Below, piece after piece: positions 2,984 to 28,935 of a stretch of 32,625 nucleotides of DNA (within the stretch, counting starts at the first letter, position 1; each line of letters starts with the position of its first letter). Under the pieces are notes generated by a model, which saw only the letters and a program-made list of their open reading frames with translations, was not told the DNA's origin and searched no databases. Position numbers and translations under genes: made by a program. Source of the DNA: a virus (Duplodnaviria > Heunggongvirae > Uroviricota > Caudoviricetes); IMG/VR virus record IMGVR_UViG_3300028601_000019, positions 132,130 through 164,754 of that record. One strand, 5' to 3'.

Positions 2984-3400
2984 TTAGATATCATCCCAAT
3001 CATCATCTTTAAGTCTTGGGATATCTTTTCTTTCCGTATGATCATGTCTTGATCTTCCACCAGAACCAAGTTTCCCAACATACTTTGTTCCTACTTCAGC
3101 AGCAAAAATAACTGCTAAAAGTTCAGTTAAATATGAGTCAACATGAGCACCAGTAACAACTTGAAAGATTATCAACATTTGAACAAAGATAAAAGAAATC
3201 CCAACCTTTGAAATTCTTCCATCATCTCTACAAATCATTTGATAAAAAGAGACTTTCCCTCTGTTTTTATAAATGGAAAAGAAAACAACCCCCAAAAATC
3301 CAAAAGATAATATAACAATAAGAATTTGATATATCATGAAGAAATCAGCAGGAATCAACATTTGTAAAAAACTTAGAAGTCAAGCAAATTTTTCTCCCAT
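2984..3400 (-). CDS. holin-like membrane protein; in-frame TGA (Trp) at codon 7
   Basis: ATG at 3400 overlaps the endolysin TAA (TAATG) with GGAG SD; reads MGEKFA*LLSFLQMLIP in frame into the tracked ORF; 2-3 TM segments and charged tail. Holin call is inferred from position and topology. Confidence 0.6.
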
Positions 3401-3966
3401 TACAATTTCTCCACATCTCTCCTACACCATTGGATTCTATTAAGCCACCCTTTAATGAATCTATTTTGTGAAGGATTGTTTTGAACTATTTTGAGAAAAA
3501 AGTTCTTTCTCTTTTCAAGAAAAATATCAATGAATTTACTTTCATCTGCTTCTTGTAAAGCGTTGAATGTATTCTTTCCATATGCCCTATCGAACACTAA
3601 ATTATATCCCATCTGAATAAGTGTCTTTTGAAGAAGGCCAGTAGCATTTTTTAATCCATGATTAACAATGGCATCAAAGAAAATAAAAGCCTTCTTATCA
3701 GAATCTAGTTTATCTAATCATGCAATATCCCAAAAATACTCTTTATAAACTTCCAATGCTTTTTCAGAATCTAGAAGTTTGATATCTTCCTTTGTAATCT
3801 GCCCATCATTATCAAGATCAAAAAGATCTAAGTCATTTGTTCCTTTTGCAAAATTAATTGATATCCCGAACTTTGTTGCCCCACCAGCATCTTCTGGAAT
3901 GTCAGTAAAAATATCAAACCCTTCATATTTTAGTGTGTAAACTATTGATTTTTTAAATTCGGCCAT
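3400..3966 (-). CDS. endolysin, glycoside hydrolase 108 + PG-binding_3 type; one in-frame TGA (3718-3720)
   Basis: EG...EDAGGATKFGI, FDAIVNHG, LLQKTL, FIKGWLNRI. Tracked ORFs 3718..3966 and 3400..3612 are the same frame joined through YFWDIA*LDKL. Confidence 0.9.
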
Positions 3967-4932: not shown

Positions 4933-5393
4933 TTAACCCCCAATATATTCATAAAAATTTGAATATGTTTCAAATCTTTCTTTTAGAGAGCTTAATACAA
5001 TATCATCTGTTAGATTGTTTTGTTTAAACACATATTCGATATATTCATAATCATACAACTTCTTTCGACGCTTGTTAACTGCTTTAATTTCTGCAAATAC
5101 AATATCTCTAGGAATCCCATATTCTTTTAGTAAAAATCTCGCTAATTCTGATTGTGAATATTCTTGAAACTGACAAATAGGACAATGCTTTTCAAGAACA
5201 AAATTTTCACCATCTACTTCTTCAATTCCATTTTCTGTATTGATTAGGTGCTCATTACAAAAAAGATGCTCATGCTCACACATTACAAATCCAATTTCAT
5301 CTATAGACATATCGTAGCCTGTTTCAGCATGGCCACAAATTTCACAAATAAAGCTACTGAACTATTGGAAACAAAACCATATCTAGTCTTCAT
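4933..5393 (-). pseudogene. FVSNSSSSSF-motif protein (paralog 1) with Cys/His clusters, frameshifted in the Ser run
   Basis: ATG 5393 MKTRYGFVSNSS then frame change to SSFICEICGHAETGYDMSIDE, joining tracked ORF 4933..5310; 4 nt short relative to the neighbour's AGT TCA AGT AGT AGC. Confidence 0.7.
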
Positions 5394-5715
5394 TTTGACC
5401 CTCCAAAACAGTAATTAAAGTGTTGACTGCAAACAGTGATCTTTCAACATCATCAATAGATGGACCTATTAAAATACTATTTAAATAGTCTCTCATGTTT
5501 TTCAGATTTTCAATGTCAGATTCTTGAACTAATGCAATAAGAGCATCCAATAACTCTTCAATTGTCATTTCAAGTTTTTCAATTTTTAGAGCAGCCTCTT
5601 CAAGTAAATCAGCAATCCTATCAGGCTTACCTTCCTCAACAGACTTTCTACCTTTAGCATTTCGCCTAATCTTTGCCCTTGTACATAGTCTATAAGTTAG
5701 CGATTCTTCATTCAT
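5383..5715 (-). CDS. hypothetical phage protein
   Basis: RAKIRR...RKSVEEGKPDRIADLLEEAA; GGAG SD. Confidence 0.75.
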   Translation of the reverse strand: MNEESLTYRLCTRAKIRRNAKGRKSVEEGKPDRIADLLEEAALKIEKLEMTIEELLDALIALVQESDIENLKNMRDYLNSILIGPSIDDVERSLFAVNTLITVLEGQNED

Positions 5716-5726
5716 TTCATATTCTC

Positions 5727-6005
5727 CTACAAAGATAAAATTTCTTGTTCTAACTGGTCCATATAAGAAACATGAACCAAAATTATATGATTAATTATTT
5801 CAAGATTCATATCCGTGTTATAATTACCATCTGTAAAACAATGATCTGTGCAGAGGCCAGAACCATCAGAGTATTGTTGAAACAAAATACCAGATTCCCA
5901 ACGTTCTATTTTCTCTCTCATTTCTTTAAGAATTTTAAGATTGGTTTTGAATTGTTTTAGCTCTTCAAGGGCTTTAATGGCCCTATCTCCATTTTCAATT
6001 TTCAT
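5727..6005 (-). CDS. hypothetical protein
   Basis: AGGAG SD; operon packing. Confidence 0.7.
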   Translation of the reverse strand: MKIENGDRAIKALEELKQFKTNLKILKEMREKIERWESGILFQQYSDGSGLCTDHCFTDGNYNTDMNLEIINHIILVHVSYMDQLEQEILSL

Positions 6006-6007
6006 TA

Positions 6008-7102
6008 TTATTCTCCTGTAAGCTTATACATGGGGCAGTTTCTACCATTCCAAAGGAGCTTGTTTCTAAACGCCTTTGTTCTTTCGTGGAACCAAATATC
6101 TTTAATGAAGTCTTCACAATCAAGAACTGAAATTCCAGTTTGCCATTCCTTTTCTTCAGCACAGAATGAACAAGGATAAAAATCTCCATGAGTATCAATA
6201 TAGACCGAGAAAGCAGAACTCTCGCACGGATCACTCATTTGAAAAAACTGTTTGTAGTTAGGATGATCTTTTACTGCATTAAGCCAATTTCCGCAAGAAC
6301 AACTGTCAAAACCAAAAGTAATTTTGCTATCAAGAAGAAGATCAATCATCCCCTTAAATTGCTTTGAAGAAGCGCAATCAAAGCCTTTGCCTCTTCCTTT
6401 CTTCTTAAGAGCAAGAAATACAATAGCATTTAGCTTTGAAAGACGTGGATCAGTCTTGATGTCATTTATAATTTCTTCTGTTGTATGAATGTTCCCGGCA
6501 TGATAACAACGGTGGATATTCACCTGGGTCATTCCACGATCCGTGAGCTTCTTAACTGAATCATAACAAAGATCCTTATTGTCATATAATGAGACAGCAC
6601 ATGCACCAGCAATAGAAGCAATCTTATCCGCTACTTCATCAGAAACATCAGCAATGGTTAGATTAGGAATAACACCATTTTGTCTTGTATATTCAAAAAT
6701 ATTCCACATATCAGGATTCGAAGTTCCTGTTGCATCAATACCAAAAGCAATCTGACCAATAGTCTTAGGAAGTTTTTCAAAAAGTTTCTTATATGTTTCA
6801 AATGTCATATAAGTGCCATCTAAGGTATTGGATTTATAACAAAAATTACATGGGACATTCATGCCCTTATCGTTTCTTGGACCATGACAAATAGTTGTAA
6901 TTTCTATGTCAGCAATCAACGGTCCATAAGGAGAATATGTAGGATCATCTTCCTTATTCTTTCCCCATGTCATTGACAACCCAGTTTCCTTATCAAAGAA
7001 GTGATTAAAACACCCATCCTTTGAGCGAATGATCTTTGTCTTTTTCCTATCTACCAATAATGCCTTATCATTTGAATCTGTTCCGAAAATTTCCTTAATC
7101 AT
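6008..7102 (-). CDS. radical SAM enzyme with C-terminal SPASM/twitch-like domain
   Basis: DIEITTIC-x12-CNFCY (expanded CxxxCxxC), GACAVS, C-terminal CESSAFSVYIDTHGDFYPCSF...CPMY. Confidence 0.85.
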   Translation of the reverse strand: MIKEIFGTDSNDKALLVDRKKTKIIRSKDGCFNHFFDKETGLSMTWGKNKEDDPTYSPYGPLIADIEITTICHGPRNDKGMNVPCNFCYKSNTLDGTYMTFETYKKLFEKLPKTIGQIAFGIDATGTSNPDMWNIFEYTRQNGVIPNLTIADVSDEVADKIASIAGACAVSLYDNKDLCYDSVKKLTDRGMTQVNIHRCYHAGNIHTTEEIINDIKTDPRLSKLNAIVFLALKKKGRGKGFDCASSKQFKGMIDLLLDSKITFGFDSCSCGNWLNAVKDHPNYKQFFQMSDPCESSAFSVYIDTHGDFYPCSFCAEEKEWQTGISVLDCEDFIKDIWFHERTKAFRNKLLWNGRNCPMYKLTGE

Positions 7103-7393
7103 TTTATTTCCTCTTACATTTGTAGAACAAAAGTTCTTTTGGTTACTTTACCAGAATGGTCTTCATCCTCATCAACTTCCAATGAATGAATAGAAAAATT
7201 TTCAAATTCTCCATATCACCAGCATATGATTCAAAAACAACTTCTCCATCACCCTTTGAAAGAACTTCTTCCATGAGAAGTGAAATCAATTTACTTGCCT
7301 TCATCATAACCTAACCTAAAATCCAACTCTTCCATATAACGGGCTTTAGAACTGCGCTTGATGGTCTTCATGATGTTCTCCAATTTGATTAAA

Positions 7394-7442
7394 TTGTTGT
7401 TTTGTTAAGATCAGAATAACAAATACATAAAGAATTGTACAC
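7394..7442 (-). promoter_or_regulatory. early-type promoter with conserved leader (copy 3)
   Basis: GTGTACA-N17-TATTCT-GATCTTAACAAAACAACAA. Confidence 0.7.
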
Positions 7443-7495
7443 ACTTATTTTAAAATTTAAAATTAATAAAAGCAAATACTTAGTATAAAAATGCA

Positions 7496-7612
7496 AAATC
7501 TCACAAAAACTAATATAAATATACATCATTTTTGTGAGATTTCTATAAAAATCTTCTAAGTTATTAAGCTAATTAAATAAACTAAGCAATAGCAAAGTTT
7601 CTAAGTTATTAA
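7496..7612. repeat. AT-rich non-coding region with a 14-bp inverted repeat and a 14-bp direct repeat
   Basis: AAATCTCACAAAAA (7496-7509) / TTTTTGTGAGATTT (7529-7542); TTCTAAGTTATTAA at 7554-7567 and 7599-7612. Confidence 0.7.
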
Positions 7613-7617
7613 TATTA

Positions 7618-7986
7618 TTACATATTCTTAAAATCAAGATTTTTCGGAAGATTATAATATTCATCAATTAACTTATCTATTTGATCTACGGCATCTATCC
7701 AATTTTTATTAGAAATATCGTGCTTAATTTTAACAAGACTATCTACCAAATCTCCATACAAATAATTCCCCAATCTATCGGAAAGTTGTTTTGCAAAATC
7801 TTCTTTTCTCTCTGCCATTGAAGAAAAGTCACTAAATAACTGAATTCTTAATCTATATCTATTAAGATAGTAACACTCAGTATAATTTTTAATATCTGTG
7901 TTTAATTCCCAACCACATGGATATTTTAAAAATTTTTCTTTGTTATTTGGGTCTAAGATAATTTCTAGGTGTTTAAGAATATTCAT
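7618..7986 (-). CDS. hypothetical protein
   Basis: ATG overlaps upstream TAA; GGGAG SD. Confidence 0.7.
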   Translation of the reverse strand: MNILKHLEIILDPNNKEKFLKYPCGWELNTDIKNYTECYYLNRYRLRIQLFSDFSSMAERKEDFAKQLSDRLGNYLYGDLVDSLVKIKHDISNKNWIDAVDQIDKLIDEYYNLPKNLDFKNM

Positions 7987-8201
7987 TAAATAGTTTCTCC
8001 CTTAAATTGCATATCACAAAATTCTTCCCAGTTTTGTCCATTTTTTTCAATTTGAAATTGGGCCCCTTCATAAAGTTTTATAAGTGCTTTCATAGGTATA
8101 TGAAAATTTGTTTCAGATTCATCTGTAAAATCAACACCATATGACATTGGTGAAAACCTTATAACATCATCAAGAAATATTCTGTTTTTATAACTTTTCA
8201 T
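7986..8201 (-). CDS. hypothetical protein
   Basis: GAGG SD; operon packing. Confidence 0.7.
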   Translation of the reverse strand: MKSYKNRIFLDDVIRFSPMSYGVDFTDESETNFHIPMKALIKLYEGAQFQIEKNGQNWEEFCDMQFKGETI

Positions 8202-8481
8202 TTATTACCTCTTCATATGAAATATTATTAGAAACCATAAAGGAAATAAGTTCATAAATTTCTTTACCGAATCTCACAATAAGTTCATCAATAACAAAGT
8301 CATTCAATAAAATTCTTTTAAGATAAGAATCTGGATAATTCATAGTAGCAATGTTGTAATGAGAGTCAATATATTCATAGAAAAAATCATCAATTGGGGT
8401 CCAACAATCTTTACCACCTTCAAGTAGTGAATAAAGCTCTAATTGATTAGCTGTGACCACAACATCATTATAAGTAAACAT
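8188..8481 (-). CDS. hypothetical protein
   Basis: Operon packing; GGGGA SD. Confidence 0.7.
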   Translation of the reverse strand: MFTYNDVVVTANQLELYSLLEGGKDCWTPIDDFFYEYIDSHYNIATMNYPDSYLKRILLNDFVIDELIVRFGKEIYELISFMVSNNISYEEVINEKL

Positions 8482-8491
8482 AATACATCCC

Positions 8492-8722
8492 CTACTTTAT
8501 ACTGATAAAAATTAGAATAGAAAGAATAAGATAACCAATACTACGCATAACACCATAACTCTTAATCTTCTTGCCTTCAAGAAGAAGTTTTAACTTTTCA
8601 ATATCCTTATTCTTTCCTACTTCATGATCATACCAAAGAGAAATTCCAGCAACTAAACGAAGAGTAAAGAACGCCATCGCAACCCCAGTACCATATTTAA
8701 AAAACATAATATAATCAAACAT
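8492..8722 (-). CDS. small membrane protein
   Basis: Two hydrophobic segments; GGAGAGG SD. Confidence 0.65.
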   Translation of the reverse strand: MFDYIMFFKYGTGVAMAFFTLRLVAGISLWYDHEVGKNKDIEKLKLLLEGKKIKSYGVMRSIGYLILSILIFISIK

Positions 8723-8967
8723 TTACCTCTCCTGTGGGGCAAGCTGAATGTCAATGTTGGCTGGTATAATTTATTGGTCAATCATCTCATAGAAAAACTT
8801 CTCACGGGCTTCACCATAAGATTTGGCAATAATTACTGTAGTCCGCCGCCGCGCTTCAGCAGTATCCCAATACCACACATCATATTCACTTTTCATTTTA
8901 ATATCCTCTTGGTTAAATTGTTTGATAGAGTTATGATATTAAAAAATTTAGCGATTGTAAACAAAAA

Positions 8968-11520
8968 TTAAAAGAAAAAATTTAAAGTTTCTGTGTTAAG
9001 ATCTAATAGTGAAAGTTTGTCACATGGTTCTAGCAGCATACTAATCTTTTTAATGAAGAATTTTTCAATCATCTTTTCAACATCTGGCTGAACACATTTT
9101 AGCTCTTTTGGATATTTGGATGAGTAAGTAAGAGTTTCAAAGCCATAAGAGTTTTGAAGCAGATAAATGACTTTTGCTTTTTCTCCTTCAATGATGTCCT
9201 GGTATTTGTCCTGTAATCCAAACTTGTTAATGAGAACATGATGGGCATATACGCCCTTTACATGCCATGGTGCACCCTTTAAAGGACCATCCTTTCCAAT
9301 GTATTTGTTAATATTATTGACACCAATATTTGCTGAAATATCTTCAATTGGAAGATCTCTAATAGCTTTTTTATATTCAATAATTTTAGCTCTAATGACA
9401 GAATCTTCCTCATTTTTAAGAATACATGTCATGACATCTTTTAACATTGCTTTGATTGGTTTTGATGTTTCGGATCTAATAATATCTAGACCTGTTACCT
9501 TAACCTTATCAACAGTCTTTCCTTCTTCATTAATGATCCAACAACCATATTTTTTCTTTTGAACCAATAAAATGGATGGACATACAATCTCTTGTTTCCA
9601 GTTAATTGTATAATCTTTTTCTTGAGAAGCAAAATGATGATTTTGAATTATATTAAAAGAGTACTCATTGATGACACTTTCAATCTCTTTACATAACTTA
9701 AGAATAAAATTTACTTTTTCTTTGTTTGATTGCAACGAATTAAATTTGCTCTGTAATTTTGAACAACTATTAATATATTTTCCAATTCCCAGAAACATAG
9801 AGTCAGTATCTTGATATAATACAAAATCTAAATTTTCAGTTGTTTCCTTATTAAGATAGTCATTAATATATGTTGCGCTGTTTTTTAAAATATGTCTGCC
9901 ACATGATGTAATAGCTTCAGCAATTCTTAGATTATATAATCTAAAATATGGTGTAGAAATAGCGCCATATAAGCTGTTAAGTATACCAACTTTAATGGCT
10001 AACTGAGTAGTTTCAAGTTCTGCAATTCTATTTTTATCTCCATCTTCTTTTTTTAATTGCAGCATTTTATCTTTTGTATCTTTTCTCATTTTAAAAAAGA
10101 TTTTTTCAATAATAGTTACAACACCAGGCTTTGTATTTTTAAATATAGATCCATTCGGGGCAATAGAAAAGGTTCCTTTTTGCAATAATGTATTAAAAAT
10201 CTTTAGTTCTTTTCCTTCTAATGTTTTAACTTCTTTATCAGGATTCTCTAATGAAATCTTTGGAAATTCTCTTTTAGATGTATATTCAATAACTTCATGC
10301 TCAGGAAGATTAACAATGCACCCAAAATAAGTCTCTGGACTCATATTTAAAGTTATCATATTATGTGGATACATTGAAGTAACGTCAAAATCAACTACCC
10401 ATTCATGTAGTCCTCGCTGAGGTTCTTTAACAAATGCTGCTTCAAACCATTCTGTTTTGCCGCCCTTAAGCTTAGGAGCACAAAGATTATTTCTTCTATA
10501 ATATGTTAAGAAAATGCCCTCAAGTACATTGGTAACTTTATCATAGAATTTCATTGGACATCTTGAAATCATACTAATGGTTTGAATAAGGTATAAGTAT
10601 TTTAGTTTTTGTTCTAGTTTATAAATAAGTTTGACGTCCTGAATATTATAATCGATATACGTCTCCCAATCATTTTCATAAAGCTGTTTTAACGTGCCAT
10701 CATATTCTAATTTTCTTTCTTTAAGCTCATTAAAAGCAATTTCATCAAGTTTATATGATTCAGGATTGGATCTTGTATATCCTTTATAGATCTGCATATA
10801 ATCAAGAACAGAAATTCCAGCAAAGTCAAAGTTTAGTCCAGTATCATCTTTCTTTTCCCAAACTGAATACTCCATAATTGGAGAAAACTTTTTAAAAATT
10901 TTATTATTTTCACCAAAAAGCTTTTTACATCTATAATAGAGATATGGAATATCAAATCCTGAAATATTCCACCCTGTTAAAATATCAATATCTGCTTGAG
11001 AATACATGTAGTTGAAAAATTCTGTTAATAAAATTTCTTCTGTTGAGCAATACACAAAATTCTTTCTATGTTTGCCAATATATGGTTTAATACCCCAGGT
11101 TTTACATGACCCATTAACATCAAGTGAAATAGCTGTTACAATACCTTCTGCTTCTTCAGGAATCGGAAACCCAGATTCAATATGACACTCAATGTCAAAA
11201 CTACCAATTCTAAGATCTGGTCTATATAAAGAATCATCTGGAATTCCATGATATCTTTCAGCAAGAAACTGAAGTTCTGGTTTTACATGATCCTCGTATT
11301 TTTTGATAGATTTTTCTTCATTAAATGTTTTGTACTTTTGATAATTTTGAAATTCAAGTTTCTTAACAGGAACATCATCAATACTTCTAATAACGCCTTC
11401 TTTATCTGGAACAAAAATATGGGGAACCCAATCAATCTCTGTTGATGTGCGTTCCCCATTTATTGTTTCCCAAAGGGTAATTTTGCTTGCTCTATAATCG
11501 AAATGAACATTTCTAAACAT
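8968..11520 (-). CDS. gp43: family B DNA polymerase (T4 gp43-like)
   Basis: ExoI FDIE, ExoII GWNISGFDIPY, ExoIII YNIQDV, motif A DFDVTSMYP, motif B KVGILNSLYG, motif C YQDTDS, KKKY. Confidence 0.95.
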   Translation of the reverse strand: MFRNVHFDYRASKITLWETINGERTSTEIDWVPHIFVPDKEGVIRSIDDVPVKKLEFQNYQKYKTFNEEKSIKKYEDHVKPELQFLAERYHGIPDDSLYRPDLRIGSFDIECHIESGFPIPEEAEGIVTAISLDVNGSCKTWGIKPYIGKHRKNFVYCSTEEILLTEFFNYMYSQADIDILTGWNISGFDIPYLYYRCKKLFGENNKIFKKFSPIMEYSVWEKKDDTGLNFDFAGISVLDYMQIYKGYTRSNPESYKLDEIAFNELKERKLEYDGTLKQLYENDWETYIDYNIQDVKLIYKLEQKLKYLYLIQTISMISRCPMKFYDKVTNVLEGIFLTYYRRNNLCAPKLKGGKTEWFEAAFVKEPQRGLHEWVVDFDVTSMYPHNMITLNMSPETYFGCIVNLPEHEVIEYTSKREFPKISLENPDKEVKTLEGKELKIFNTLLQKGTFSIAPNGSIFKNTKPGVVTIIEKIFFKMRKDTKDKMLQLKKEDGDKNRIAELETTQLAIKVGILNSLYGAISTPYFRLYNLRIAEAITSCGRHILKNSATYINDYLNKETTENLDFVLYQDTDSMFLGIGKYINSCSKLQSKFNSLQSNKEKVNFILKLCKEIESVINEYSFNIIQNHHFASQEKDYTINWKQEIVCPSILLVQKKKYGCWIINEEGKTVDKVKVTGLDIIRSETSKPIKAMLKDVMTCILKNEEDSVIRAKIIEYKKAIRDLPIEDISANIGVNNINKYIGKDGPLKGAPWHVKGVYAHHVLINKFGLQDKYQDIIEGEKAKVIYLLQNSYGFETLTYSSKYPKELKCVQPDVEKMIEKFFIKKISMLLEPCDKLSLLDLNTETLNFFF

Positions 11521-11543
11521 TTTAACCTCTTAAATAAAAATAA

Positions 11544-11590
11544 AAATAACATAGATGAGTTATTATGTAAACAATTCATCTATGTTATTT
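11544..11590 (-). promoter_or_regulatory. long hairpin (terminator-like) overlapping a probable polymerase promoter
   Basis: About 18-bp inverted repeat AAATAACATAGATGAGTT / AATTCATCTATGTTATTT; GTTTACA in the loop, then N17 and TATTTT. Confidence 0.55.
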
Positions 11591-11596
11591 AATTTA

Positions 11597-12274
11597 TTAG
11601 TTATTTTGTACTATATCTAGTTCTTCTACAGTATTAAATGACCGGGCCTTTTCAAAGTCAATCTCAATGATATTACCATCAATAAGATGATAATTAAAAA
11701 TGTCAAGAAAACTAAGTTCTTGACCTTTCTCATATTTAAAACGAGTAACCTTAATAAGTTTCTTTAGTGCAGACACAACATCTCGTTTCTTAAAAAGAAA
11801 TAATGACATATCATGATAACCAAGACCAGACGTATCATCGCCCAATTTTGAAAACAGAATAGAAGTAATTTTTTTATCTTGTGTCTCAATTTTAACATAT
11901 GGATCTTCTTCAACAACTACTGGCATTAAAAAGGATCCATCATAATTTTCTAAACAGGTTTCAATTACTTTAGATGACTGTATTGAGTCTCCCCAAGAAA
12001 GGAAAATTGTATCTGAACCTTTAATAGGAAGCTCAAGTAATGATGTTAAAGTTGCTTCACCACAACCATAGCCAGACTTAATTGGTACAATTTCAAAATG
12101 GGGATTCTTAAACTTGGAAAAGAAAACAACATTTGAAAAAGAACACATTACAAAAATCTTATCAACCTTTCCCTTGTATGCATTGATGTTTTCATTTAGT
12201 GCATAGATACCTTTTGGAATGTTTGATTTGAATCGTGTTTGATTTCCAGCGGCCAAAATAATAGCATATTTCAT
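11597..12274 (-). CDS. sugar-phosphate nucleotidyltransferase (NTP_transferase, GT-A fold)
   Basis: AIILAAGNQTRF...PK, LSWGD, SFNTVEEL. Confidence 0.85.
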   Translation of the reverse strand: MKYAIILAAGNQTRFKSNIPKGIYALNENINAYKGKVDKIFVMCSFSNVVFFSKFKNPHFEIVPIKSGYGCGEATLTSLLELPIKGSDTIFLSWGDSIQSSKVIETCLENYDGSFLMPVVVEEDPYVKIETQDKKITSILFSKLGDDTSGLGYHDMSLFLFKKRDVVSALKKLIKVTRFKYEKGQELSFLDIFNYHLIDGNIIEIDFEKARSFNTVEELDIVQNN

Positions 12275-13986
12275 TAATAACCACCATTAAGTAATTTAAG
12301 AATTAAATTTGTTTCTTTAATAGAGTCCACATTAACTACTGTATCGCATTGCTTTGAAATTCCTGCATCATTTCCAGATTCACATTCATCACCAATATAT
12401 AAACACTTTCTAAAACTATATTGATCTAAAATGAACTTCTTACATGCATTTTTCGGTGTTATATCTATGCTGGTTGTTCCTGTAACTGTAGCAATACAGT
12501 TAATATCATTATTAAAAAAATACACATTAAGGTGCTTAGCAAATTCCTTGCGATATGTATCACTCAACGGTTTAATATTCACACATGTAATAATATCTCC
12601 AGTTCCTCTTTCAGTAAGTTTGTCACCAAGCCCATGCATTCTTAGATATGCTTTAATTTTAATTAAATTTTCAAGAGAAATACTCATAATATGATTGTAG
12701 TATAAATCATCCTTATAACATATAAGACCACCATCTGCCCAAATATCTATATTTTTATGTTTGCCAAATCTATTTCTAATGTGACTATACTTATTTCCTG
12801 ATGTAATAACAACCTTTTTGTGTTTAGATAGACGTTTAACCAATTCAGCATTTTCAAGAGAAATAAAATTTAAATAATAATCATGTTTTCTTGAATAAAT
12901 TGTATCATCAAAATCCATAAAAACAATATCTTGATCTTTAAGATTATAATAAAGTGAGTAAATTGCAGTAGCTAATAATTCAGGATTATGTTTGCCCTTA
13001 TTATTTCCCATAGTATAAAATACACTAGAATCTTTATATGATGGGTTTACAATTCTCATAGAAATATTAGCATCATTGTTAAAGAGAAAGATTGCATTAT
13101 TTAAATCAACATATTTAGATACTGTTTTAATAATATCTGCACTATTGATTCCTTTCATATCTTTATCTTCTTCATTATTAACTACAAAAATTTTCTTTCC
13201 TGTATACTCTGCAACGATGTTCTGAAATTCTGTATTTTTATATGTTGGAATTAGTGAGCTCCATTGGGTACCGGAACTAAAAATAAGAAGATCTGTTTTT
13301 TCTAAAATAAGCTCTTTGACTTTTGGATTGAGGAAATAATAATGACTTTGTGTACACTCAAGATCAATATTGTAGAAGAATACATCTTTAATTTCAATTT
13401 CTTGGTTATTTAAATCTACAATTGATCCTTCATCCATAAGTATATTCTTTGTTGTATGAGCTCTAAGTACAAGATTCTCAAATGAATTTATAACAATATT
13501 ATCTTTTAAATTTAAAAATTTTCTAAAAAATTCTGCCGCTCTCTCTTCCTTATTTGGATAATTCTCGTAATAAAGGAAGACGCCTCCATATACAATGTTA
13601 GCAATGGAAAAATCCTTAAATTCAAAATTCTTTGGAACTCTTTCAAAAAATAATTCTATAGCATTATTAAAAATAGAAAGATTCCATTCTAAAAGAATGT
13701 TCTTTACACATTCTTTAGGATTATCTTTTGGAATGTCAAATCTCTTTTCATAAAAATCAAGAATATTTTGATCATGAACATTTTTATTTGTTAAATACTG
13801 CACATAATGATTCTTGCGAAGATCAGATGGTCCCAAACAAGTACAAATTTTTCTTACATCGCCAGTACTTTTTCCATCATCATACATGTTTATAAGATTG
13901 GTAATCTTGCAATCAGGATAAAGAGACTTAAGCCCCAATTGCAATTGAACTGATCCAGATCCACCAGACAAAATAGTTATATTCAT
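12274..13986 (-). CDS. CofD/YvcK (UPF0052)-like domain fused to a HAD-IIB phosphatase/phosphomutase domain
   Basis: N-terminal LSGGSGS, DDGKSTG..R, PSDLRK, SGTQWSSLIP; C-terminal FMDFDDTI, ITSG, GTTSIDITP...K, YIGDECESGND. Confidence 0.85.
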   Translation of the reverse strand: MNITILSGGSGSVQLQLGLKSLYPDCKITNLINMYDDGKSTGDVRKICTCLGPSDLRKNHYVQYLTNKNVHDQNILDFYEKRFDIPKDNPKECVKNILLEWNLSIFNNAIELFFERVPKNFEFKDFSIANIVYGGVFLYYENYPNKEERAAEFFRKFLNLKDNIVINSFENLVLRAHTTKNILMDEGSIVDLNNQEIEIKDVFFYNIDLECTQSHYYFLNPKVKELILEKTDLLIFSSGTQWSSLIPTYKNTEFQNIVAEYTGKKIFVVNNEEDKDMKGINSADIIKTVSKYVDLNNAIFLFNNDANISMRIVNPSYKDSSVFYTMGNNKGKHNPELLATAIYSLYYNLKDQDIVFMDFDDTIYSRKHDYYLNFISLENAELVKRLSKHKKVVITSGNKYSHIRNRFGKHKNIDIWADGGLICYKDDLYYNHIMSISLENLIKIKAYLRMHGLGDKLTERGTGDIITCVNIKPLSDTYRKEFAKHLNVYFFNNDINCIATVTGTTSIDITPKNACKKFILDQYSFRKCLYIGDECESGNDAGISKQCDTVVNVDSIKETNLILKLLNGGY

Positions 13987-13995
13987 ATCTTCTCC

Positions 13996-15108
13996 TTAAA
14001 AATTTTCTTCTATAATTTTTCTAAAATCTTTACAATATTGATTTATATCTATCATAACATCTGTATATTGTAAACTTTGAATGAGAGCAATATGTTTAGG
14101 ATTCTCTCTAAGAAATCTAATTTTTTTAATGACATCGTCACGTGAAGAAACATAACAAAATTTTCTAAGCGTTTCATTAGTAAATACTCGTTTACTTTTG
14201 TCATAAGAATCATCTATAAAGGTCACATTACCACATAATATAGATTCATATGTCCTTTGCGCTAAATCATCAACCTGCTTATACAGGGCGTCACCGATAA
14301 TAACTGTAGACAACCCGGACTTCATCTCTTGATTGAAATTTTCATATGGGATAGCTTTTCCAAACATAGGCATATTCAATCCTTGTTTATTTTTCTTGAA
14401 GTGTTTTTCTTCAATTTTGCCAAACATATTTACTTTAATATCTTCAGGATAGCCAAAATAAAATTTTATCATATCTTCTTCACGTCTACCTGATCTGAAA
14501 GTTCCGCCATAGATAATATCCCAAGAACATTCTTCAGGATTGAGAAAATCTTTTTTCATGGTAACTAAAGGAAATTTTTCAAATGGAAAATGAATAACAT
14601 CTTTAATTTGAATTTTACTCTTTTTGACATGTTCTTTATATTTTACAACATCTTTAGGCTGGCATATATAGATAATATCATCTCTTTGAATTAAAACATC
14701 TTCTTTTGTATAGGTATCTTTCCATTCTTTCTTTTCAATTGATGGCCACACCTGAGTTAATGTAAGATTGGGATCACAAAGAATATAGAAGACCTTACCT
14801 TTAAAATTATTAATGACCTCATAAATTTTTGTATCTGAGGGAGAATCTTGACCACCAAAATAATTTGCATTACCATTTAAAACCAAAAGACAATCATAAT
14901 CTTCACTTTTAACTTCTTCCTTCAAAATATCCTTAATTTGAAAATCCGCAGGCACCTCATCTTTGTCCAATATTTTTGTAAATGCAGTAACATTAATTCC
15001 CGCAGTCGTAAGAAGTTTAATAATAGCAAGAGTCTCGCCATTACCACCAGAAGTAGATCGCGAATTAACACAGATTCTTGATCCTAATTTTAAAACACAC
15101 ACATTCAT
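13996..15108 (-). CDS. T4 beta-glucosyltransferase-like DNA glycosyltransferase
   Basis: NGNANYFGG, DIIYGGTFRSGRRE, IIGD..Y, RTYE, FID..YD match T4 BGT motifs as recalled (INFFGG, YGGSFRSGQRE, IIGDKNY, RVWE, LIDEEFD). Confidence 0.88.
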   Translation of the reverse strand: MNVCVLKLGSRICVNSRSTSGGNGETLAIIKLLTTAGINVTAFTKILDKDEVPADFQIKDILKEEVKSEDYDCLLVLNGNANYFGGQDSPSDTKIYEVINNFKGKVFYILCDPNLTLTQVWPSIEKKEWKDTYTKEDVLIQRDDIIYICQPKDVVKYKEHVKKSKIQIKDVIHFPFEKFPLVTMKKDFLNPEECSWDIIYGGTFRSGRREEDMIKFYFGYPEDIKVNMFGKIEEKHFKKNKQGLNMPMFGKAIPYENFNQEMKSGLSTVIIGDALYKQVDDLAQRTYESILCGNVTFIDDSYDKSKRVFTNETLRKFCYVSSRDDVIKKIRFLRENPKHIALIQSLQYTDVMIDINQYCKDFRKIIEENF

Positions 15109-15159: not shown

Positions 15160-15205
15160 AAAAAAGCTCCGTTAACTAAAAATAAATTATAGTTAGCGGA
15201 GCTTT
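15160..15205 (-). terminator. intrinsic terminator
   Basis: AAAGCTCCGCTAACTA / TAGTTAACGGAGCTTTTTT on the minus strand. Confidence 0.7.
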
Positions 15206-15229
15206 AATTGTAAACAAATAAGAAGTTTT

Positions 15230-17326: not shown

Positions 17327-17621
17327 CTTTTATTTCCCCTTTTATATCTACCAAACTGTCAGACACACTTTGACCTTTAAAAACTTTCTTTACGAAATTG
17401 TACTTGTTTCTTGACAAGATAGGAGAAGCAAGTTTGTATCTCTTTAATTCTCCTAACACATTTCTACTCTGTAGTAAATCTAAAATTTTCTCCCTGTCCT
17501 CGGAAAGTTTCAAATATTCACTAGACTCTTCATCTGTTGATTTTCGTCTTTCTTCAAGTCTTTCCAAAAGATAAAGAACGGCGAAATCAAAAAATTCATT
17601 TAAATCTGTTCTAATCTTCAT
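17319..17621 (-). CDS. hypothetical protein
   Basis: AAGGA SD; overlaps both neighbours. Confidence 0.7.
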   Translation of the reverse strand: MKIRTDLNEFFDFAVLYLLERLEERRKSTDEESSEYLKLSEDREKILDLLQSRNVLGELKRYKLASPILSRNKYNFVKKVFKGQSVSDSLVDIKGEIKDE

Positions 17622-18084
17622 TATTTATTCCTTTAAGGTTATTCAACACTTCTCTCAAAATTTTTGTTTCTTCTGGTTTTACCCAATTTCTGTAGATTTT
17701 ACTTCTAATATTTTGATTTAATCAATCATCAGATTCAAGGACCCCTAAAGAATATAAAAAAAATTCTTCGGCGTAGGCGAGCATTCCTTTACTTGAAACA
17801 AATCCTAAAATTTCCTTTGTAAAATCAGAAGGGCCGCCAGCAGCCCTAATTCATTCTTTAATTTGGGGAGAACTAGATCAATATGTTAATCAATCACTAG
17901 CAGTTCTAATTTTTTTCTTCTTTCCCTTTACTACTTTAGATGAAGCTTTAGTTAAAAGTTTTCTGCCAATATATCTTTTGCCAGTAGATTTTTGAGTTAT
18001 TATATAAACAAATCCTATTGCATTATCAATAGGAATATCATCTTCAGATAGAATTTCTTTACCTTTGAAAGTTCAGTTGCTCAT
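17611..18084 (-). CDS. GIY-YIG family nuclease (157 aa) with five in-frame TGA codons; missed by the ORF track
   Basis: MSN*TFKG...GFVYIITQKSTGKRYIGRK...SD*LTY*SSS...KE*IR...DD*LNQNI; AAGGA SD; TATAAATA at 18115-18122. Confidence 0.88.
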
Positions 18085-18603: not shown

Positions 18604-19560
18604 TTAGAAGTTTTCAAGTTCGGCGAGAAGATCCGCCTCTGATAGGTCTTCTGTTTCATCTTTTTTACATTCCGCTTCTTTTTCAGGTTCCTTTGTAGTA
18701 GGCTTAGATTCTTCCTTGGGGGTCTCAGTCTTAGGAGATTCCTTCTTTTCTGTCTTAGGTTCATTCTCATATTTTTCAAAATCACGAGCAACTAGATCCC
18801 AAAACATTTCATCCTTCATAGCCTTAATAAGATCAGCCATTGACTTCTTGCTCTTAGAAAGATATTCATTAAGATCTACACGAGTTTCCATAAGCTTTTC
18901 AATTTGTTCATCTGTACCAATCGCACTAGGACGACGAGCAAATGTACTCATCGAATATTCAGGAAAACTCTGATTCTGGCCACCAGATTGAGTTCCTACC
19001 TTAATAATAAAATTATAACCATCTTCACCTGGATCAAAAATTGCTGCGCCAAGTCCATTACGGGTATCCTTAATTTCTTCAGCAAGTTTCTGTTCAAGTT
19101 TAGAAGGAAATTCATAAAGAAGAACCTTGCCTTCCTGCTTAGAATCATCATCTGCTGCTTTACCAGCATCTCTAGGATCATAAGCAACGAACACATTAGA
19201 AACAAACTTTTCTTTACGCTTTAGCTTACGAGCTTCTGTTTTATCATTTTCAGATCCCTGAAAAAGCTTATTAACTACTGCGCAAATTGGGCATGGATTA
19301 TTAAAATCTTCAGTCTTAGGACATTGAAAATAAACCCACTTTTCACCCATCTTCCACATATGATAAAAAATCTTCTGATAAAATCCCTTAGTTGGATCCG
19401 GAAGAAATCTAACTTCATATGTTTTGGGATTATCAGATGGACCCTTTTCAAGGGCTTTTCATTTCTTATCTAAAAATGCACCACCAGATGTAGGCTGGGT
19501 TTCATTGCGTTTTTCCTCTACGAATTCTTTGAACAAATCCTTAGTAACTCATTTTGACAT
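18604..19560 (-). CDS. gp32: single-stranded DNA-binding protein (T4 gp32-like, 318 aa) with TGA at codons 4 and 34
   Basis: MSK*VTK...DKK*KAL...VRFLPD...YH...CPKT...CPIC...GKVLLY...FDP..G.NF; acidic tail; AAGGAG SD at ATG 19560. Confidence 0.9.
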
Positions 19561-24702: not shown

Positions 24703-25539
24703 TTATTCAAAAAATTCCTTTATTTTTAAATTTTCTTTTGTTTCTTTTTTGCAAACAAAAATATAGCATTCAGCAATTTCGGGCTTCATAAATGCCATTA
24801 ATGCTGAAGCTAAACCAGATGAAATATCTTTTAGTTTGTTATAGAGATTTTTCTCTTCAATTGTTAAATGTTTTTTAAAATATCTAGCTTTACCAAGCCA
24901 CCCATTAACTCTTTTAATTTCAAATCCAAACCCAATAAGAATTCTTTTCATTTCATCTAATGAATACTCATAAATATGATTTTCTGGCCAAACAAAATTT
25001 TGCCCATCACATTTTTTTGGATTCGGAGAAGAGACAATTAGTACACCTCGATCACTAAGAAGGTCTTTTGCTTCCTCAATAATACTCATAACGATATGTG
25101 GATCAAGGTGCTCTAGGATCTCCTGAAGCAAAATAATATCATATTTATCATGCTGGCCAATATTATTCAAAGATTGATTATTTAGATCAAATTGAATAAC
25201 ATTAAATCTATTTACAGATTTTTCATTTTTCCCTTGATTTGCTTTATCAACAACATCTTGTCGATATTCTAATCCAACATAATCAACTCTGGGTCTGCCA
25301 GGAGAATCAAAATTATTCCACCAAAAATTTAAAAATGTTTTTTCTCCGCACCCTACATCAAGTATTTTAACTGCATCTTCAATATTTTCTCTTTTAATAG
25401 ATAAAATTTCATTACATGCAGTAGTGTATCTCAGCATAAAGGCGGAATGCCACCCATTACTTAATTTGATTTTTCCAAGAAAATCATTTTTAAAGAACAT
25501 TTCTGAACTGTCATCAAATGTATCTTTAGTCACAAACAC
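24703..25539 (-). CDS. class I SAM-dependent methyltransferase
   Basis: KILDVGCG, YVGLE, YDIILLQEILEHL, LSDRGVLIVSSPN, HIYEYS. Confidence 0.88.
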   Translation of the reverse strand: MFVTKDTFDDSSEMFFKNDFLGKIKLSNGWHSAFMLRYTTACNEILSIKRENIEDAVKILDVGCGEKTFLNFWWNNFDSPGRPRVDYVGLEYRQDVVDKANQGKNEKSVNRFNVIQFDLNNQSLNNIGQHDKYDIILLQEILEHLDPHIVMSIIEEAKDLLSDRGVLIVSSPNPKKCDGQNFVWPENHIYEYSLDEMKRILIGFGFEIKRVNGWLGKARYFKKHLTIEEKNLYNKLKDISSGLASALMAFMKPEIAECYIFVCKKETKENLKIKEFFE

Positions 25540-26109: not shown

Positions 26110-27495
26110 CTAACCCCCAAAGTTAAAATTTTCTGAAAGGTAATAAAGAATTTCTTCCTTATCATTAATAAGATATTTATCATAAACAGCTTCAAGTGTA
26201 AACCTCAAAGCGTCACCAACTATTCTCCCCGGCCTCAAATTAAATCTTTCAATCAAATCATTTCCATTAACTTTCAAATCTTTGATTGAAAAAACGGAAT
26301 CTTCTTTAGTAGTGAAAAGTTCTTCATATGTCAAAAGAATATTTTTAATCTCACCAAATTTAAAATTGGGTTTGTTAAGATTTCCTGCCCTATCTGCAAG
26401 CTTCAATCTTGTATGAGCACGATAGTTAATTCCATGCTCTTGAAAAGCTCTGATCATCTTCCTAACGCTCTTTTCCCCGCCATGAGTATTATTTCTCATG
26501 TGAAGTTTTACATAAGCAGCAATCTTATCAATGATTTCATTAGAAAACTTAAGATCTTTAAGTTCCTTTCTAACTATTTTTTCCCCAACATATTCATGAC
26601 CAATGAAAGTTCTTTCAACTTTATCATACACATGATACTTTCCAATATCATGAAGATAACCAGAAAGTTTCAAAACAGGACATCTTGTTGAAATGAAGTC
26701 ACCAGCAATCATCATGTGTTGAAACAAATCTTCCTTATGATGTGGTCCACCATCATGAAATACACATCTATCAAGAGTAGGAAAGATATCCTTTAGTAGT
26801 CCACAATCCAAAAGAACTGTAAAAAACCAAGAAGCTTTTTTAATCTTCATTGCCTTAAGAATCTCTTTAGAAATCCTTTCTTTGGCAATGTATTGGAACA
26901 AATGTATAGATTCTCTAATTGCTCTTTCAGTTTCAAAAGACAAAACAGCATTCATCTTTGCAGCGAACCTTGCAACACGAATCATTCTATTTGGATCTTC
27001 CTTAATGCGTTCAAAAGGATCACCAACAAAAGAAATGAGGTTTTGATTTATATGATTTCTTCCATTAAAAGGATCAACAATTTTTCCATCATTCTTACTA
27101 ACATTATACGCCAAAGCTGATATAGTTAAATCACGTCTAGCCAAATCCTCGGTTATTGTTTCACAAAACGTTATATTGACATCTTTATTGTTACCATTTT
27201 TAGCATAATGATCACCTCTAAATGTCGCTATTTCAATACCATCACATATTATTATCCCAAAAGATTTTCCAACTTCATCTATTTTGGAAGCGGGTAACTC
27301 TTTACTTAAAATATGTTTTATTTCTTCTGGATGAAGATTTGTTGCTATGTCATAATCGTTTGGTTTTATGCCAACTATAAAATCTCTAACCGCACCACCA
27401 ACCACATATACCTCTTCACTATATTTAGAAAGAGCATTAATTATAATCTTCTCTTTTTTAGGGATTGTGTAGTAAAAAGTTTTAAAATCTGTCAT
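26110..27495 (-). CDS. cca: CCA-adding tRNA nucleotidyltransferase with HD domain
   Basis: YVVGGAVRD, DYDIAT, EIATFR, EDLARRDLTI, EDPNRMIR, ERI, LHDIGK. Confidence 0.9.
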   Translation of the reverse strand: MTDFKTFYYTIPKKEKIIINALSKYSEEVYVVGGAVRDFIVGIKPNDYDIATNLHPEEIKHILSKELPASKIDEVGKSFGIIICDGIEIATFRGDHYAKNGNNKDVNITFCETITEDLARRDLTISALAYNVSKNDGKIVDPFNGRNHINQNLISFVGDPFERIKEDPNRMIRVARFAAKMNAVLSFETERAIRESIHLFQYIAKERISKEILKAMKIKKASWFFTVLLDCGLLKDIFPTLDRCVFHDGGPHHKEDLFQHMMIAGDFISTRCPVLKLSGYLHDIGKYHVYDKVERTFIGHEYVGEKIVRKELKDLKFSNEIIDKIAAYVKLHMRNNTHGGEKSVRKMIRAFQEHGINYRAHTRLKLADRAGNLNKPNFKFGEIKNILLTYEELFTTKEDSVFSIKDLKVNGNDLIERFNLRPGRIVGDALRFTLEAVYDKYLINDKEEILYYLSENFNFGG

Positions 27496-27518
27496 AATTT
27501 AAACCCCTAAATTATTTT

Positions 27519-27571
27519 TATAAATAGTTATTATAAACGGTGTAAGAACAATTGGTAGTTGTTCTTACACC
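27519..27571 (+). promoter_or_regulatory. late promoter followed by a 15-bp hairpin in the HNH leader
   Basis: TATAAATA 27519-27526; GGTGTAAGAACAATT-GGT-AGTTGTTCTTACACC 27539-27571; AGGAG SD downstream. Confidence 0.7.
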
Positions 27572-27602
27572 TAAACACAACTTTGTATAGGAGTACAAAA
27601 TC

Positions 27603-28646: not shown

Positions 28647-28935
28647 TTGTTTCTGCATATTCAATTACACAGTTCTTATCAGAGTTTCCAAAGTAATGAT
28701 CTTTTCTATAGGTAGCAACTTCAATTTCACCTACACGAACAACCTTAAAAGCTTCACCACAATAAACAACCTTATGAGAAGTTTTGAAAATTTCAAAAAT
28801 CTCTTCGGGTTTTGCATTGGTTGTAATGTCATAATCGTCAGGAATGATGCCCATGATTTCATCACGAACACAACCGCCAACGTAATAACATTCAAATCCT
28901 GCTTCTATGATCTTCTGTGTAATTTCTTTATGCAT
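28647..28935 (-). pseudogene. 5' fragment of a second, divergent CCA-adding enzyme truncated at the HNH gene boundary
   Basis: YYVGGCVRD, DYDITT, EVATYRKDHY; similarity to the full copy ends at YAETI, at the HNH stop codon, just before the EDLxRRD motif. Confidence 0.8.

Follow-up and report, generated by a model that had tools for sequence, protein, structure and literature searches.

A conserved enzyme pair that probably supplies a nucleotide sugar to a T4 BGT-like DNA glycosyltransferase in a tailed phage

What do a CofD/YvcK-HAD fusion protein and a nucleotidyltransferase do beside a homologue of T4 beta-glucosyltransferase (BGT)? The question is raised by three genes in a 32,625-nucleotide stretch of tailed-phage DNA (IMG/VR record IMGVR_UViG_3300028601_000019; hereafter the window). 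Sugar coats on phage cytosines determine which restriction and CRISPR systems cut, and every new sugar shifts the outcome. A first-pass annotation had proposed that this phage itself produces the activated donor of a cytosine modification, the DNA carrying either a non-glucose sugar or a sugar decorated further through a phosphodiester by CofC/CofD-like chemistry. The features concerned are as follows.

13996..15108, minus strand, T4 beta-glucosyltransferase homologue, 370 aa; predicted 5hmC DNA glycosyltransferase (PF09198, T4 BGT matches)
12943..13986, minus strand, YvcK/CofD-fold domain, fusion residues 1 to about 348; predicted phosphotransfer on a sugar phosphate (PF01933, YvcK profile)
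12274..12939, minus strand, HAD-IIB domain of phosphomannomutase type, fusion residues about 350-570; by prediction a phosphatase or mutase of sugar bisphosphates (profiles, fold)
11597..12274, minus strand, GlmU-type sugar-1-phosphate nucleotidyltransferase with a remodelled pocket, 225 aa (family profile, fold)
8968..11520, minus strand, family B DNA polymerase, 850 aa (phrog_262, E 8e-173); adjoins the cassette without being a conserved member of it
15186..15214, minus strand, candidate early promoter of sigma-70 type, TTTACA-17-TATAAT, located 78 bases ahead of the BGT start
24703..25539, minus strand, class I SAM methyltransferase, 278 aa (PF13847, E 2e-12); candidate outlying member of the pathway

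The tight linkage of the three genes noted at first pass was confirmed. They fill positions 11597-15108 as minus-strand ORFs, with a gap of 9 bases between the BGT gene and the fusion gene (12274-13986, 570 aa), while the fusion and nucleotidyltransferase genes overlap as TAATG. The dN/dS ratios, calculated against one relative of 77-85% identity, were 0.10 for BGT, 0.14 for the fusion and 0.09 for the nucleotidyltransferase. The three are real and intact genes on which purifying selection acts. TGA is read as tryptophan in many genes of this phage genome (code 4); the cassette genes contain no in-frame TGA and each ends with TAA, which leaves their limits as called. The DNA polymerase gene begins 76 bases beyond the cassette. 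This adjacency, which was also part of the first-pass annotation, is real here, but elsewhere the polymerase directly follows the cassette only in about 4-5 near-identical relatives (L001, L003-L005). The candidate promoter is the top-scoring site of the region (11/12 matches); since the total number of sites (25 versus 26.2 in shuffled sequences) is at chance level, it is a lead only.

The BGT homologue matches PF09198 (E 1e-21) and phrog_7922 (E 4e-49), and is homologous to T4 BGT over its full length (E 4e-36 over residues 2-337, 26% identity). Its D112 aligns with the T4 catalytic base D100 and is invariant in 39/39 sequences. The T4 positions E22, D100, R191, R195, D258, Y261, R269 and E272, which we take to be the catalytic and UDP-binding residues, are all retained, and for this reason plain UDP-glucose may be its donor. 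The literature searched yielded no paper on the glucose contacts of T4 BGT. The clade to which it belongs departs from T4 at T99, R102, N215, W341 and the 15-21 loop, and is separated from T4 (SH-aLRT 100) in a quick, midpoint-rooted tree. A complete genome with a BGT of the same clade (L249) has neither the fusion-nucleotidyltransferase module nor a visible donor gene.

A dCMP hydroxymethylase, for which the first-pass annotation had suggested a search, was found at positions 91789-92466 of the phage genome (G000), next to a nucleotide kinase. The protein is gp42-like (E 2e-74 to T4 gp42), and its D140, C143, D166 and D174 correspond to ThyA positions D143, C146, D169 and D177. Aspartate at ThyA positions 143, 169 and 177 is the hydroxymethylase pattern, and D169N the hydroxylase pattern (PMC13326640). 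The present enzyme retains D169, as does every one of the 32 distinct sequences in the alignment, so that the RB69-type D169N change is absent. As the genome encodes a gp42-like enzyme with the hydroxymethylase signature, the acceptor is likely 5hmC. No dCTPase was detected with PF08761 or a MazG-like profile in the genome, which is about 69% complete; a dUTPase and a Nudix gene are encoded. Six-base palindromes containing C are under-represented (median O/E 0.79 versus 0.94 for C-free ones), a shortage that full restriction protection would not require.

Profiles and folds also bore out the domain identities proposed for the two other genes. The fusion protein (structure model pLDDT 96) has at its N-terminus a CofD-family domain (PF01933, E 2e-14, residues 3-296). 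The profile of this domain matches YvcK structures at E 3e-25 versus 1e-4 for CofD, the latter match covering only the first 34 positions, and its model gives Z scores of 24.9 to a YvcK-family chain, 20.9 to CofD and 21.0 to FbiA. By these comparisons, YvcK rather than CofD is the closer relative of the domain. Residues G8, G9, G11, D36, D55, R57, K58, N130, T240, S244, D274 and D276 are invariant in 120/120 relatives, and the score to the YvcK/GlmR family TIGR01826 (47.7 versus a cut-off of 196 bits) is below threshold. GlmR residues were mapped onto the fusion through an alignment with Bacillus halodurans YvcK: D40 and D41 (Listeria numbering) correspond to D36 and D37, of which the former is kept in 120/120 relatives and the latter in 65/120 (N in 45), and the N198 position is Thr or Ser in all 120. 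Among the characterised YvcK/CofD proteins, GlmR is a uridylyltransferase (PMC10128056) and another is a phospholactate transferase. Kinase activity of any YvcK/CofD protein was not found reported in the literature. A CofD-like nature of agrocinopine synthase found no support in the literature and was dropped. Single-sequence queries of the domain pieces against the PDB returned nothing or noise.

The C-terminal domain matches HAD-IIB (TIGR01484, E 2e-5, residues 354-550), and its profile phosphomannomutase (E 7e-16) and alpha-phosphoglucomutase (E 1e-12). The top folds for its model are phosphomannomutases with the C2b cap (Z 18.9). D358, D360, T362 and K516 are invariant in 120/120 relatives, and G532-D540 is retained in at least 110/120. 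The DxD, catalytic Lys and GD..GND motifs, together with the modelled C2b cap, assign the domain to the phosphomannomutase-type HAD-IIB proteins. It may be a phosphatase or a mutase, between which the sequence does not discriminate.

The nucleotidyltransferase gave no Pfam match as a single sequence, but its family profile matches GlmU (E 2e-22), which is also the best Foldseek match of its model (E 2e-14, TM 0.79). CofC appeared neither among the best 60 sequence matches nor among the top 50 fold ranks listed, and a fainter resemblance to it is possible. The protein corresponds to the N-terminal domain of GlmU only, without the acetyltransferase domain. K21, G70, W94 and D96 are invariant in 103/103 family members, while the uracil-reading Q76 of GlmU is Ile here and in 80/103. 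Further pocket changes are Y103 to W, E154 to S and N169 to D, the replaced Glu being presumably a sugar-binding residue. A genome scan with the phage-type nucleotidyltransferase, covering 2/64 parts, returned only ordinary GlmU-like matches (E 7e-11 or weaker) and does not enter the analysis.

The neighbourhood survey, likewise suggested at first pass, identified the YvcK-fold gene and the nucleotidyltransferase as a conserved unit. They adjoin each other in 45/46 viral, 42/43 metagenome and 64/67 genome loci, i.e. 151/156 loci that have 2.5 kb of flanking sequence to either side, in sets that overlap and contain near-copies. In the reverse search from the nucleotidyltransferase, a YvcK-fold gene lay within 6 kb in 23/24 viral and 54/61 bacterial loci; five of the 8 others are cut by contig ends, one is an unrelated weak match and two have no such gene in the available DNA. 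This reverse survey found no locus with a known kinase in place of the YvcK gene. The transferase partner varies: in 54 viral loci it is BGT in 41, TAGT (PF20691) in 5 and an unnamed candidate transferase in 4, and in bacterial loci it is a GT2, GT4, GT8 or EryCIII-like transferase, accompanied by flippases. These contexts are interleaved in the YvcK/CofD domain tree (FastTree, with two mis-called long rows included), which forces at least 8 changes for the BGT label. In the complete phage genome L253, whose BGT is of the same clade, the fusion is absent and a UDP-galactopyranose mutase lies 1.2 kb downstream; the annotation of Lactobacillus phage ATCCB reads TS-BGT-mutase.

The analysis establishes the genes and their folds, the integrity of the catalytic motifs, the selection acting on them and their co-occurrence; the functions are predicted from these. 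Since the two genes travel together, adjoin unrelated sugar transferases and are replaced by a mutase in L253, they most likely supply a donor. The fusion and the nucleotidyltransferase thus probably form a nucleotide-sugar supply module, whose product, most likely not glucose, would be transferred to 5hmC by the BGT homologue. As the pair likely makes an activated sugar, the phage DNA probably bears a sugar other than the glucose of T4. The first-pass proposal of a phage-made donor is thereby supported as likely.

A pathway of six steps can be proposed. From homology and the active-site signature, the gp42-like enzyme would make hm-dCMP, which the adjacent kinase would phosphorylate. The YvcK-fold domain is placed in the kinase slot because the layout matches the contig 53 heptose cassette (see below); it would there phosphorylate a host sugar phosphate at its anomeric hydroxyl, an assignment by analogy to which we give slightly less than an even chance. 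The HAD domain would then strip the terminal phosphate to leave a sugar-1-phosphate. The closest matches of this domain are mutases, and this suits another route. The last two core steps can be predicted with more assurance: the GlmU-type enzyme would very likely form the NDP-sugar, and BGT very likely move the sugar to hmC. Finally, the methyltransferase may perhaps methylate the product. Its relatives (39-62% identity) adjoin BGT, fusion and nucleotidyltransferase genes in 6/6 viral loci, and lie between BGT and fusion in 5, a count that is not independent because the query was built from those same loci. This gene, 10 kb from the cassette, probably belongs to the pathway. It is missing from 5 other records, including a 58%-complete close relative and RsoM2USA, and is therefore optional. 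No paper on the DNA of RsoM2USA was found in the literature.

As to the sugar, a furanose from central metabolism, either ribose or fructose, is our best guess, and a doubtful one; the literature held nothing usable on a fructose donor. In phage locus L260, a GmhA-like isomerase lies between BGT and a divergent fusion, an arrangement in favour of the kinase slot; that cassette would be expected to yield a heptose. That fusion is only 24% identical to the present one, the clue comes from one phage lineage, and a second locus of the subfamily was sought and not found. A scan of 361 loci found GmhA-like isomerases on 3 distinct contigs; none is encoded in this genome under code 4, and a host GmhA could supply the step. 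Two GmhA neighbours of the module, in L148 and L178, were rejected as support for the kinase slot: L148 has a decayed copy, and the GmhA of the bacterial locus L178 is one member of a complete heptose pathway, HddC-HddA-GmhB, in which HddA is the kinase, which argues that the module product differs from that heptose.

The donor role would also hold under a different chemistry, which would alter only steps 2 and 3 and is a possible, less favoured route. Here the YvcK domain would either be an activator or catalyse an isomerisation or epimerisation, perhaps with NAD; the HAD would be a true mutase that moves phosphate to carbon 1, and the third enzyme would activate the product, as in ManA-ManB-ManC or GlmS-GlmM-GlmU. 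The nearest relatives of the HAD, phosphomannomutase and alpha-phosphoglucomutase, fit this, as do the GlmU ancestry of the nucleotidyltransferase and the NAD bound in the B. halodurans YvcK structure 2O2Z (PMC13046274). However, many bacterial loci encode the HAD as a protein of its own, from a different subfamily (PF13419), which is easier to reconcile with a plain phosphatase, and L260 already has a separate isomerase. Moreover, position 476, the counterpart of what we take to be an arginine of the mutase cap (PMM2 R134), lacks conservation. It is improbable, on the other hand, that the module merely boosts UDP-glucose or UDP-GlcNAc where these are scarce in the host, leaving plain glucosyl- or GlcNAc-hmC. 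GlmR is an accessory uridylyltransferase, two of whose three tested residues are present as D36 and D37, and the BGT core is that of T4; yet the N198 position is changed throughout, the nucleotidyltransferase pocket is unlike that of GlmU, and the module also occurs inside polysaccharide loci of bacteria and archaea having their own housekeeping pathways. In addition, a BGT match occurs in 121 further GenBank phages, all but one of which manage without it.

The phosphodiester decoration proposed at first pass, in which the nucleotidyltransferase would make NDP-X and the CofD-like domain move phospho-X onto glucosyl-hmC, fared poorly and is now quite improbable. The fold is common to CofD and FbiA, and a guanylate kinase-like gene follows the cassette in one jumbo-phage lineage, as release of NMP would need. 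Bacterial phosphodiester decorations use the same three enzyme types, i.e. a nucleotidyltransferase, a HAD and a phosphotransferase. Nevertheless, little speaks for the idea, given a nucleotidyltransferase of the GlmU sugar-1-phosphate type. The domain is nearer to YvcK, and closely related domains serve many unrelated sugar transferases, of DNA as well as of surface-polysaccharide loci, which is unlikely for a polymer-binding enzyme. Moreover, a donor-making mutase substitutes for the module in L253, and no guanylate kinase-like gene is found in this genome. Least probable is a donor made for another phage glycosyltransferase, acting on the virion or host surface, with BGT linked by position only. 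Besides two epimerases, the genome encodes at least two further glycosyltransferase-like proteins (G000 85363-86421 and 109453-110718), but these transferase genes carry 6 and 7 TGA codons, like structural genes, whereas the cassette is free of them like other replication genes, and BGT adjoins the module in very different phages.

The most specific joint reading of the donor-supply model would have the YvcK/CofD fold act as an anomeric sugar-phosphate kinase of a new class. Together with the HAD and GlmU-type enzymes it would yield an activated furanose (ribose or fructose) unseen on DNA, which BGT would put on hmC and the methyltransferase methylate to a new base, the same module feeding surface glycans of bacteria and archaea. 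As a whole, this reading is unlikely. Many phages unrelated to one another carry the cassette, which is also met in glycan loci of bacteria and archaea, and identification of its product would name a probably new DNA modification and a nucleotide-sugar pathway missing from surface-glycan annotation. The YvcK/CofD fold is poorly understood, and for a large branch of it an activity assigned here would be the first.

No description of the module was found in the open papers searched. CofD/UPF0052 does not appear in the main text of the contig 53 preprint (10.1101/2023.12.21.572611), whose cluster tables could hold the module. The known systems can be compared as follows. YvcK/GlmR (UPF0052) shares the fold, the glycine loop and the DD motif with the fusion, but the present domain is HAD-fused, lacks N198, scores far below the family cut-off and lies among glycosyltransferases rather than in a rapZ-yvcK-whiA operon. 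In F420 biosynthesis a CofD fold likewise works with a nucleotidyltransferase, CofC, whereas the partner here is GlmU-like and no F420 genes occur among the neighbours scanned. The arabinosyl-hydroxycytosine phages RB69, DLP3 and HY126 make their own NDP-sugar with an isomerase, a kinase, a HAD phosphatase and a pyrophosphorylase encoded near the polymerase (PMC13326640), of which the last three would have counterparts here; their acceptor is 5-hydroxycytosine, made by a D169N synthase, and the present cassette has neither an arabinose-5-phosphate isomerase nor an APH-like kinase. According to the preprint cited above, contig 53 yields heptosyl-mC with a HAD::APH-kinase, a nucleotidyltransferase and a T4-BGT-like enzyme, all three being required. 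Likened by description only, both cassettes have a three-gene plan of X::HAD fusion, nucleotidyltransferase and T4-BGT-like DNA transferase, X being an APH-like kinase there and the YvcK fold here, and the nucleotidyltransferase being called a cytidylyltransferase there and GlmU-type here. The T4 glucosyl-hmC pathway (gp42, gp1, gp56, BGT) is matched by the gp42-like enzyme with its signature, the adjacent nucleotide kinase and the BGT core residues, but not by a gp56-like dCTPase in the part of the genome available. T4 takes UDP-glucose from its host, and b-gt has no donor genes for neighbours, whereas here donor-type genes adjoin the BGT homologue.

The window is the final 32.6 kb of a 164,754-base T4-like phage record (31% GC; the whole record, with its own numbering, is termed G000). 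The record occurs in landfill metagenome runs, its possible source. A cassette of three minus-strand genes of 370, 570 and 225 amino acids occupies the whole of positions 11597..15108:

13996..15108, minus strand, gene 1, homologue of T4 beta-glucosyltransferase (BGT)
12274..13986, minus strand, gene 2, fusion of a YvcK/CofD-fold and a HAD-IIB domain
11597..12274, minus strand, gene 3, nucleotidyltransferase

Genes 1 and 2 are separated by 9 bases, genes 2 and 3 share one base, and a family B polymerase begins 76 bases downstream, in agreement with the first-pass annotation, which had placed the three genes directly upstream of the polymerase. The identities it proposed were also borne out. 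Gene 1, called BGT-like, is a full-length T4 BGT homologue (E 4e-36). Gene 2, called a CofD/YvcK-HAD fusion, gave a structure model (pLDDT 96) with both domains; by profile, the first matched YvcK structures at E 3e-25 versus 1e-4 for CofD, and the second was closest to phosphomannomutases (E 7e-16). Fold searches gave the same assignments, and the catalytic-type residues of both domains are unchanged in 120/120 relatives. Gene 3, called an NTP-transferase, is a GlmU-type N-terminal domain (profile E 2e-22, fold E 2e-14) that retains the active-site Lys and Asp. Its sugar pocket is altered relative to GlmU (E154 to S, N169 to D and Y103 to W). It also has Ile in place of Q76, the uracil-reading Gln of GlmU according to PMC10128056. 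Compared with a relative at 77-85% identity, genes 1, 2 and 3 showed dN/dS values of 0.10, 0.14 and 0.09.

Many G000 genes seem interrupted when translated with the standard code, because the phage reads TGA as Trp. With TGA as Trp, the coding density increases from 0.65 to 0.86 and the terminase and portal genes are restored to full length; Trp occurs opposite TGA sites more often than any other residue (6/23). Examples of TGA-containing features in the window are:

17611-18084
18604-19560
3400-3966
31409-32596

Twelve replication or modification genes that were checked held 0 TGA and 52 TGG codons, and nine structural or other genes 55 TGA and 22 TGG; SSB, dUTPase and helicase are TGA-containing exceptions among replication genes. 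No tRNA reading TGA was found in G000. In-frame TGA is absent from the cassette genes, and therefore the three open reading frames first called there are correct; it is likewise absent from the polymerase, the synthase described below, its kinase and the methyltransferase.

Other features of the phage were recorded. A second glycosylation cluster (G000 107153-112153; 7153-12153 of locus L011) holds two epimerases, one of them a 392-aa NAD epimerase, together with a methyltransferase and a GT-B-like gene that contains 7 TGA codons; a glycosyltransferase-like gene at G000 85363-86421 (phrog_7162, E 3e-25) is seen only when TGA is Trp. The CCA-adding tRNA nucleotidyltransferase gene is split (window 28597-28935 and 26110-27495, span 26110-28935) around a homing endonuclease on the opposite strand, a possible intron. 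Three IS605/TnpB-like genes with similar N-termini lie at window 29438-30691 and G000 about 5180-6349 and 36846-38027. The terminase large subunit (G000 6448-8439) has an intein-like insertion (approximately residues 85 to 235), judging from its end motifs and an interruption of the family matches.

The dCMP hydroxymethylase that the first-pass annotation proposed to search for is present as a gp42 homologue at G000 91789-92466 (E 2e-74), adjoined by a nucleotide kinase gene. In PMC13326640, the synthase signature is N177D for dCMP, L143D/E for hydroxymethylation and D169N for hydroxylation. The G000 enzyme has D143, D169 and D177, the hydroxymethylation signature, and the same holds for each of the 32 distinct synthases aligned from loci with the fusion-nucleotidyltransferase module (E143 in one). 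The modified base is thus likely 5hmC. Neither a dCTPase nor a guanylate kinase-like gene was found in G000, a record about 69% complete.

Among 8,000 candidates scored, 483 fusion relatives were recognized, and 54 viral, the best 80 of 504 metagenome and the best 80 of 134 genome loci were retrieved, in sets that overlap and include near-copies. The neighbourhood survey that had been suggested revealed a conserved pair: among loci with 2.5 kb of flanking sequence on each side, the nucleotidyltransferase lies beside the YvcK-fold gene in 45/46 viral, 42/43 metagenome and 64/67 genome loci. The reverse search, from the nucleotidyltransferase, found a YvcK-fold gene near in 23/24 viral and 54/61 bacterial loci. 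The partner transferase in the 54 viral loci is BGT in 41, TAGT (PF20691) in 5, an unnamed candidate in 4 and none in 4, three of which end at a contig edge. Bacterial and archaeal loci carry GT2, GT4, GT8 or EryCIII-like enzymes alongside flippases and polymerases; in many of these loci HAD is a separate protein of a different subfamily. In a FastTree tree of 147 domains, DNA-transferase and surface-glycan contexts are interleaved; for instance, one BGT-linked copy has as its sister a domain from a contig binned as Methanobrevibacter (support 99). Searching from BGT placed the fusion within 10 kb in 44/54 loci, a figure skewed upward since the patterns derived from module-linked BGTs. BGT matched 122 of 50,697 GenBank phage records and the fusion only 2, including that of the cultured phage RsoM2USA of Ralstonia; gene 1 has its nearest BGT in this phage (46%). 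A quick BGT tree parts module-linked BGTs and 7 unlinked ones from 8 T4-type references by a fully supported branch.

Because the pair moves between DNA and surface-glycan transferases of several folds, the most plausible reading is that it supplies a soluble donor. Natural swaps support this reading. The complete genome L253 lacks the fusion and has a same-clade BGT followed by UDP-galactopyranose mutase; BGT homologues adjoining this mutase (L253 12281-13339, L283 5945-7042) mark candidate galactofuranosyl-hmC phages. In phage locus L260 (11116-14241) the order is BGT, GmhA-like isomerase, divergent fusion, nucleotidyltransferase and synthase. Isomerase, HAD and nucleotidyltransferase follow one another here as they do in heptose pathways, and the YvcK domain takes the slot, X, between isomerase and HAD; the cassette is likely a heptose version. 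In published work, contig 53, which encodes a T4-BGT-like enzyme, a nucleotidyltransferase and a HAD::APH fusion, makes heptosyl-mC (10.1101/2023.12.21.572611), and in the arabinose route an isomerase is followed by a kinase, a HAD enzyme and a pyrophosphorylase (PMC13326640). Since a kinase fills the X slot in published phage cassettes, we propose that the YvcK-fold domain would phosphorylate a sugar phosphate at the anomeric position, the HAD domain would remove phosphate, the GlmU-type nucleotidyltransferase would activate the sugar and the BGT homologue would transfer it to the cytosine base. Partner swapping and the L253 and L260 loci make likely the earlier claim that the phage makes its own activated donor. 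We consider it quite probable that the module supplies a donor giving a non-glucose product; the kinase step of the YvcK-fold domain is proposed more tentatively, at slightly below an even chance.

Several observations count against parts of this scheme. The characterised YvcK relative is a uridylyltransferase according to PMC10128056 and PMC13046274, and CofD is the other characterised relative. A known kinase in place of the YvcK gene was not found in loci searched from the nucleotidyltransferase, and the mutase-like character of the HAD domain speaks against the phosphatase step. The isomerase clue comes from a single lineage whose fusion is 24% identical to gene 2. In L178 the module adjoins an entire heptose pathway that includes a kinase, which makes heptose unlikely as the sugar of the main family. 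The gene 1 clade also contains a BGT from L249, a complete genome that lacks the module. C-containing palindromes are somewhat avoided (0.79 vs 0.94 for C-free ones, plain median observed-to-expected ratios). Within the donor-supply reading, an isomerase is missing from most loci and the hosts belong to several phyla, which makes a common metabolite the probable substrate; ribose-5-phosphate and fructose-6-phosphate, even taken jointly, are a rather doubtful guess from this reasoning.

A further gene may contribute:

24703-25539, methyltransferase, relatives at 39-62% identity

Its relatives lie within the cassette in 6/6 viral loci returned, between BGT and fusion in 5, with a query built from those same 6 loci. 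Another 5 records examined yielded no copy of it. Given this query bias and absence, it is regarded as an optional member that could methylate the sugar or donor.

Module relatives also occur elsewhere. In another phage group (L017, L021, L053, L066, L074, L077, L130) the module is preceded by a gene containing a DSGAF motif, presumably tRNA-guanine-transglycosylase/DpdA-like, as well as by genes for a Vut_1 transporter, an SDR and a 297-aa protein with no name; these loci may represent a sugar-decorated deazaguanine pathway. A uracil-DNA-glycosylase-superfamily gene (PF03167, E 9e-6) lies beside BGT or the fusion in L019, L024, L031, L062, L139 and L247. In a sugar-use locus on an Agrobacterium rubi plasmid (L285, 5531-9023), genes for tagatose-bisphosphate aldolase and a ROK kinase precede a distant YvcK-family gene; no second kinase is annotated there, an arrangement compatible with the YvcK fold acting as a kinase. 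Related domains in ESM Atlas clusters come from giant viruses (773 aa, in some cases together with a nucleotidyltransferase domain) and Mycoplasmatota, and from Pseudomonadota, where they are fused to GT2.

No description of the YvcK-fold module was found in the open-access papers and preprint main texts searched. Membership tests set the cassette apart from GlmU and, by profile score, from GlmR; the GlmU-type partner makes a CofC/CofD system less likely. Glycosylation of a hydroxylated cytosine after replication would be shared with the T4, RB69 and contig 53 systems, and a phage-made donor with RB69 and contig 53; what is new is the placement of a YvcK-fold domain in the donor pathway.
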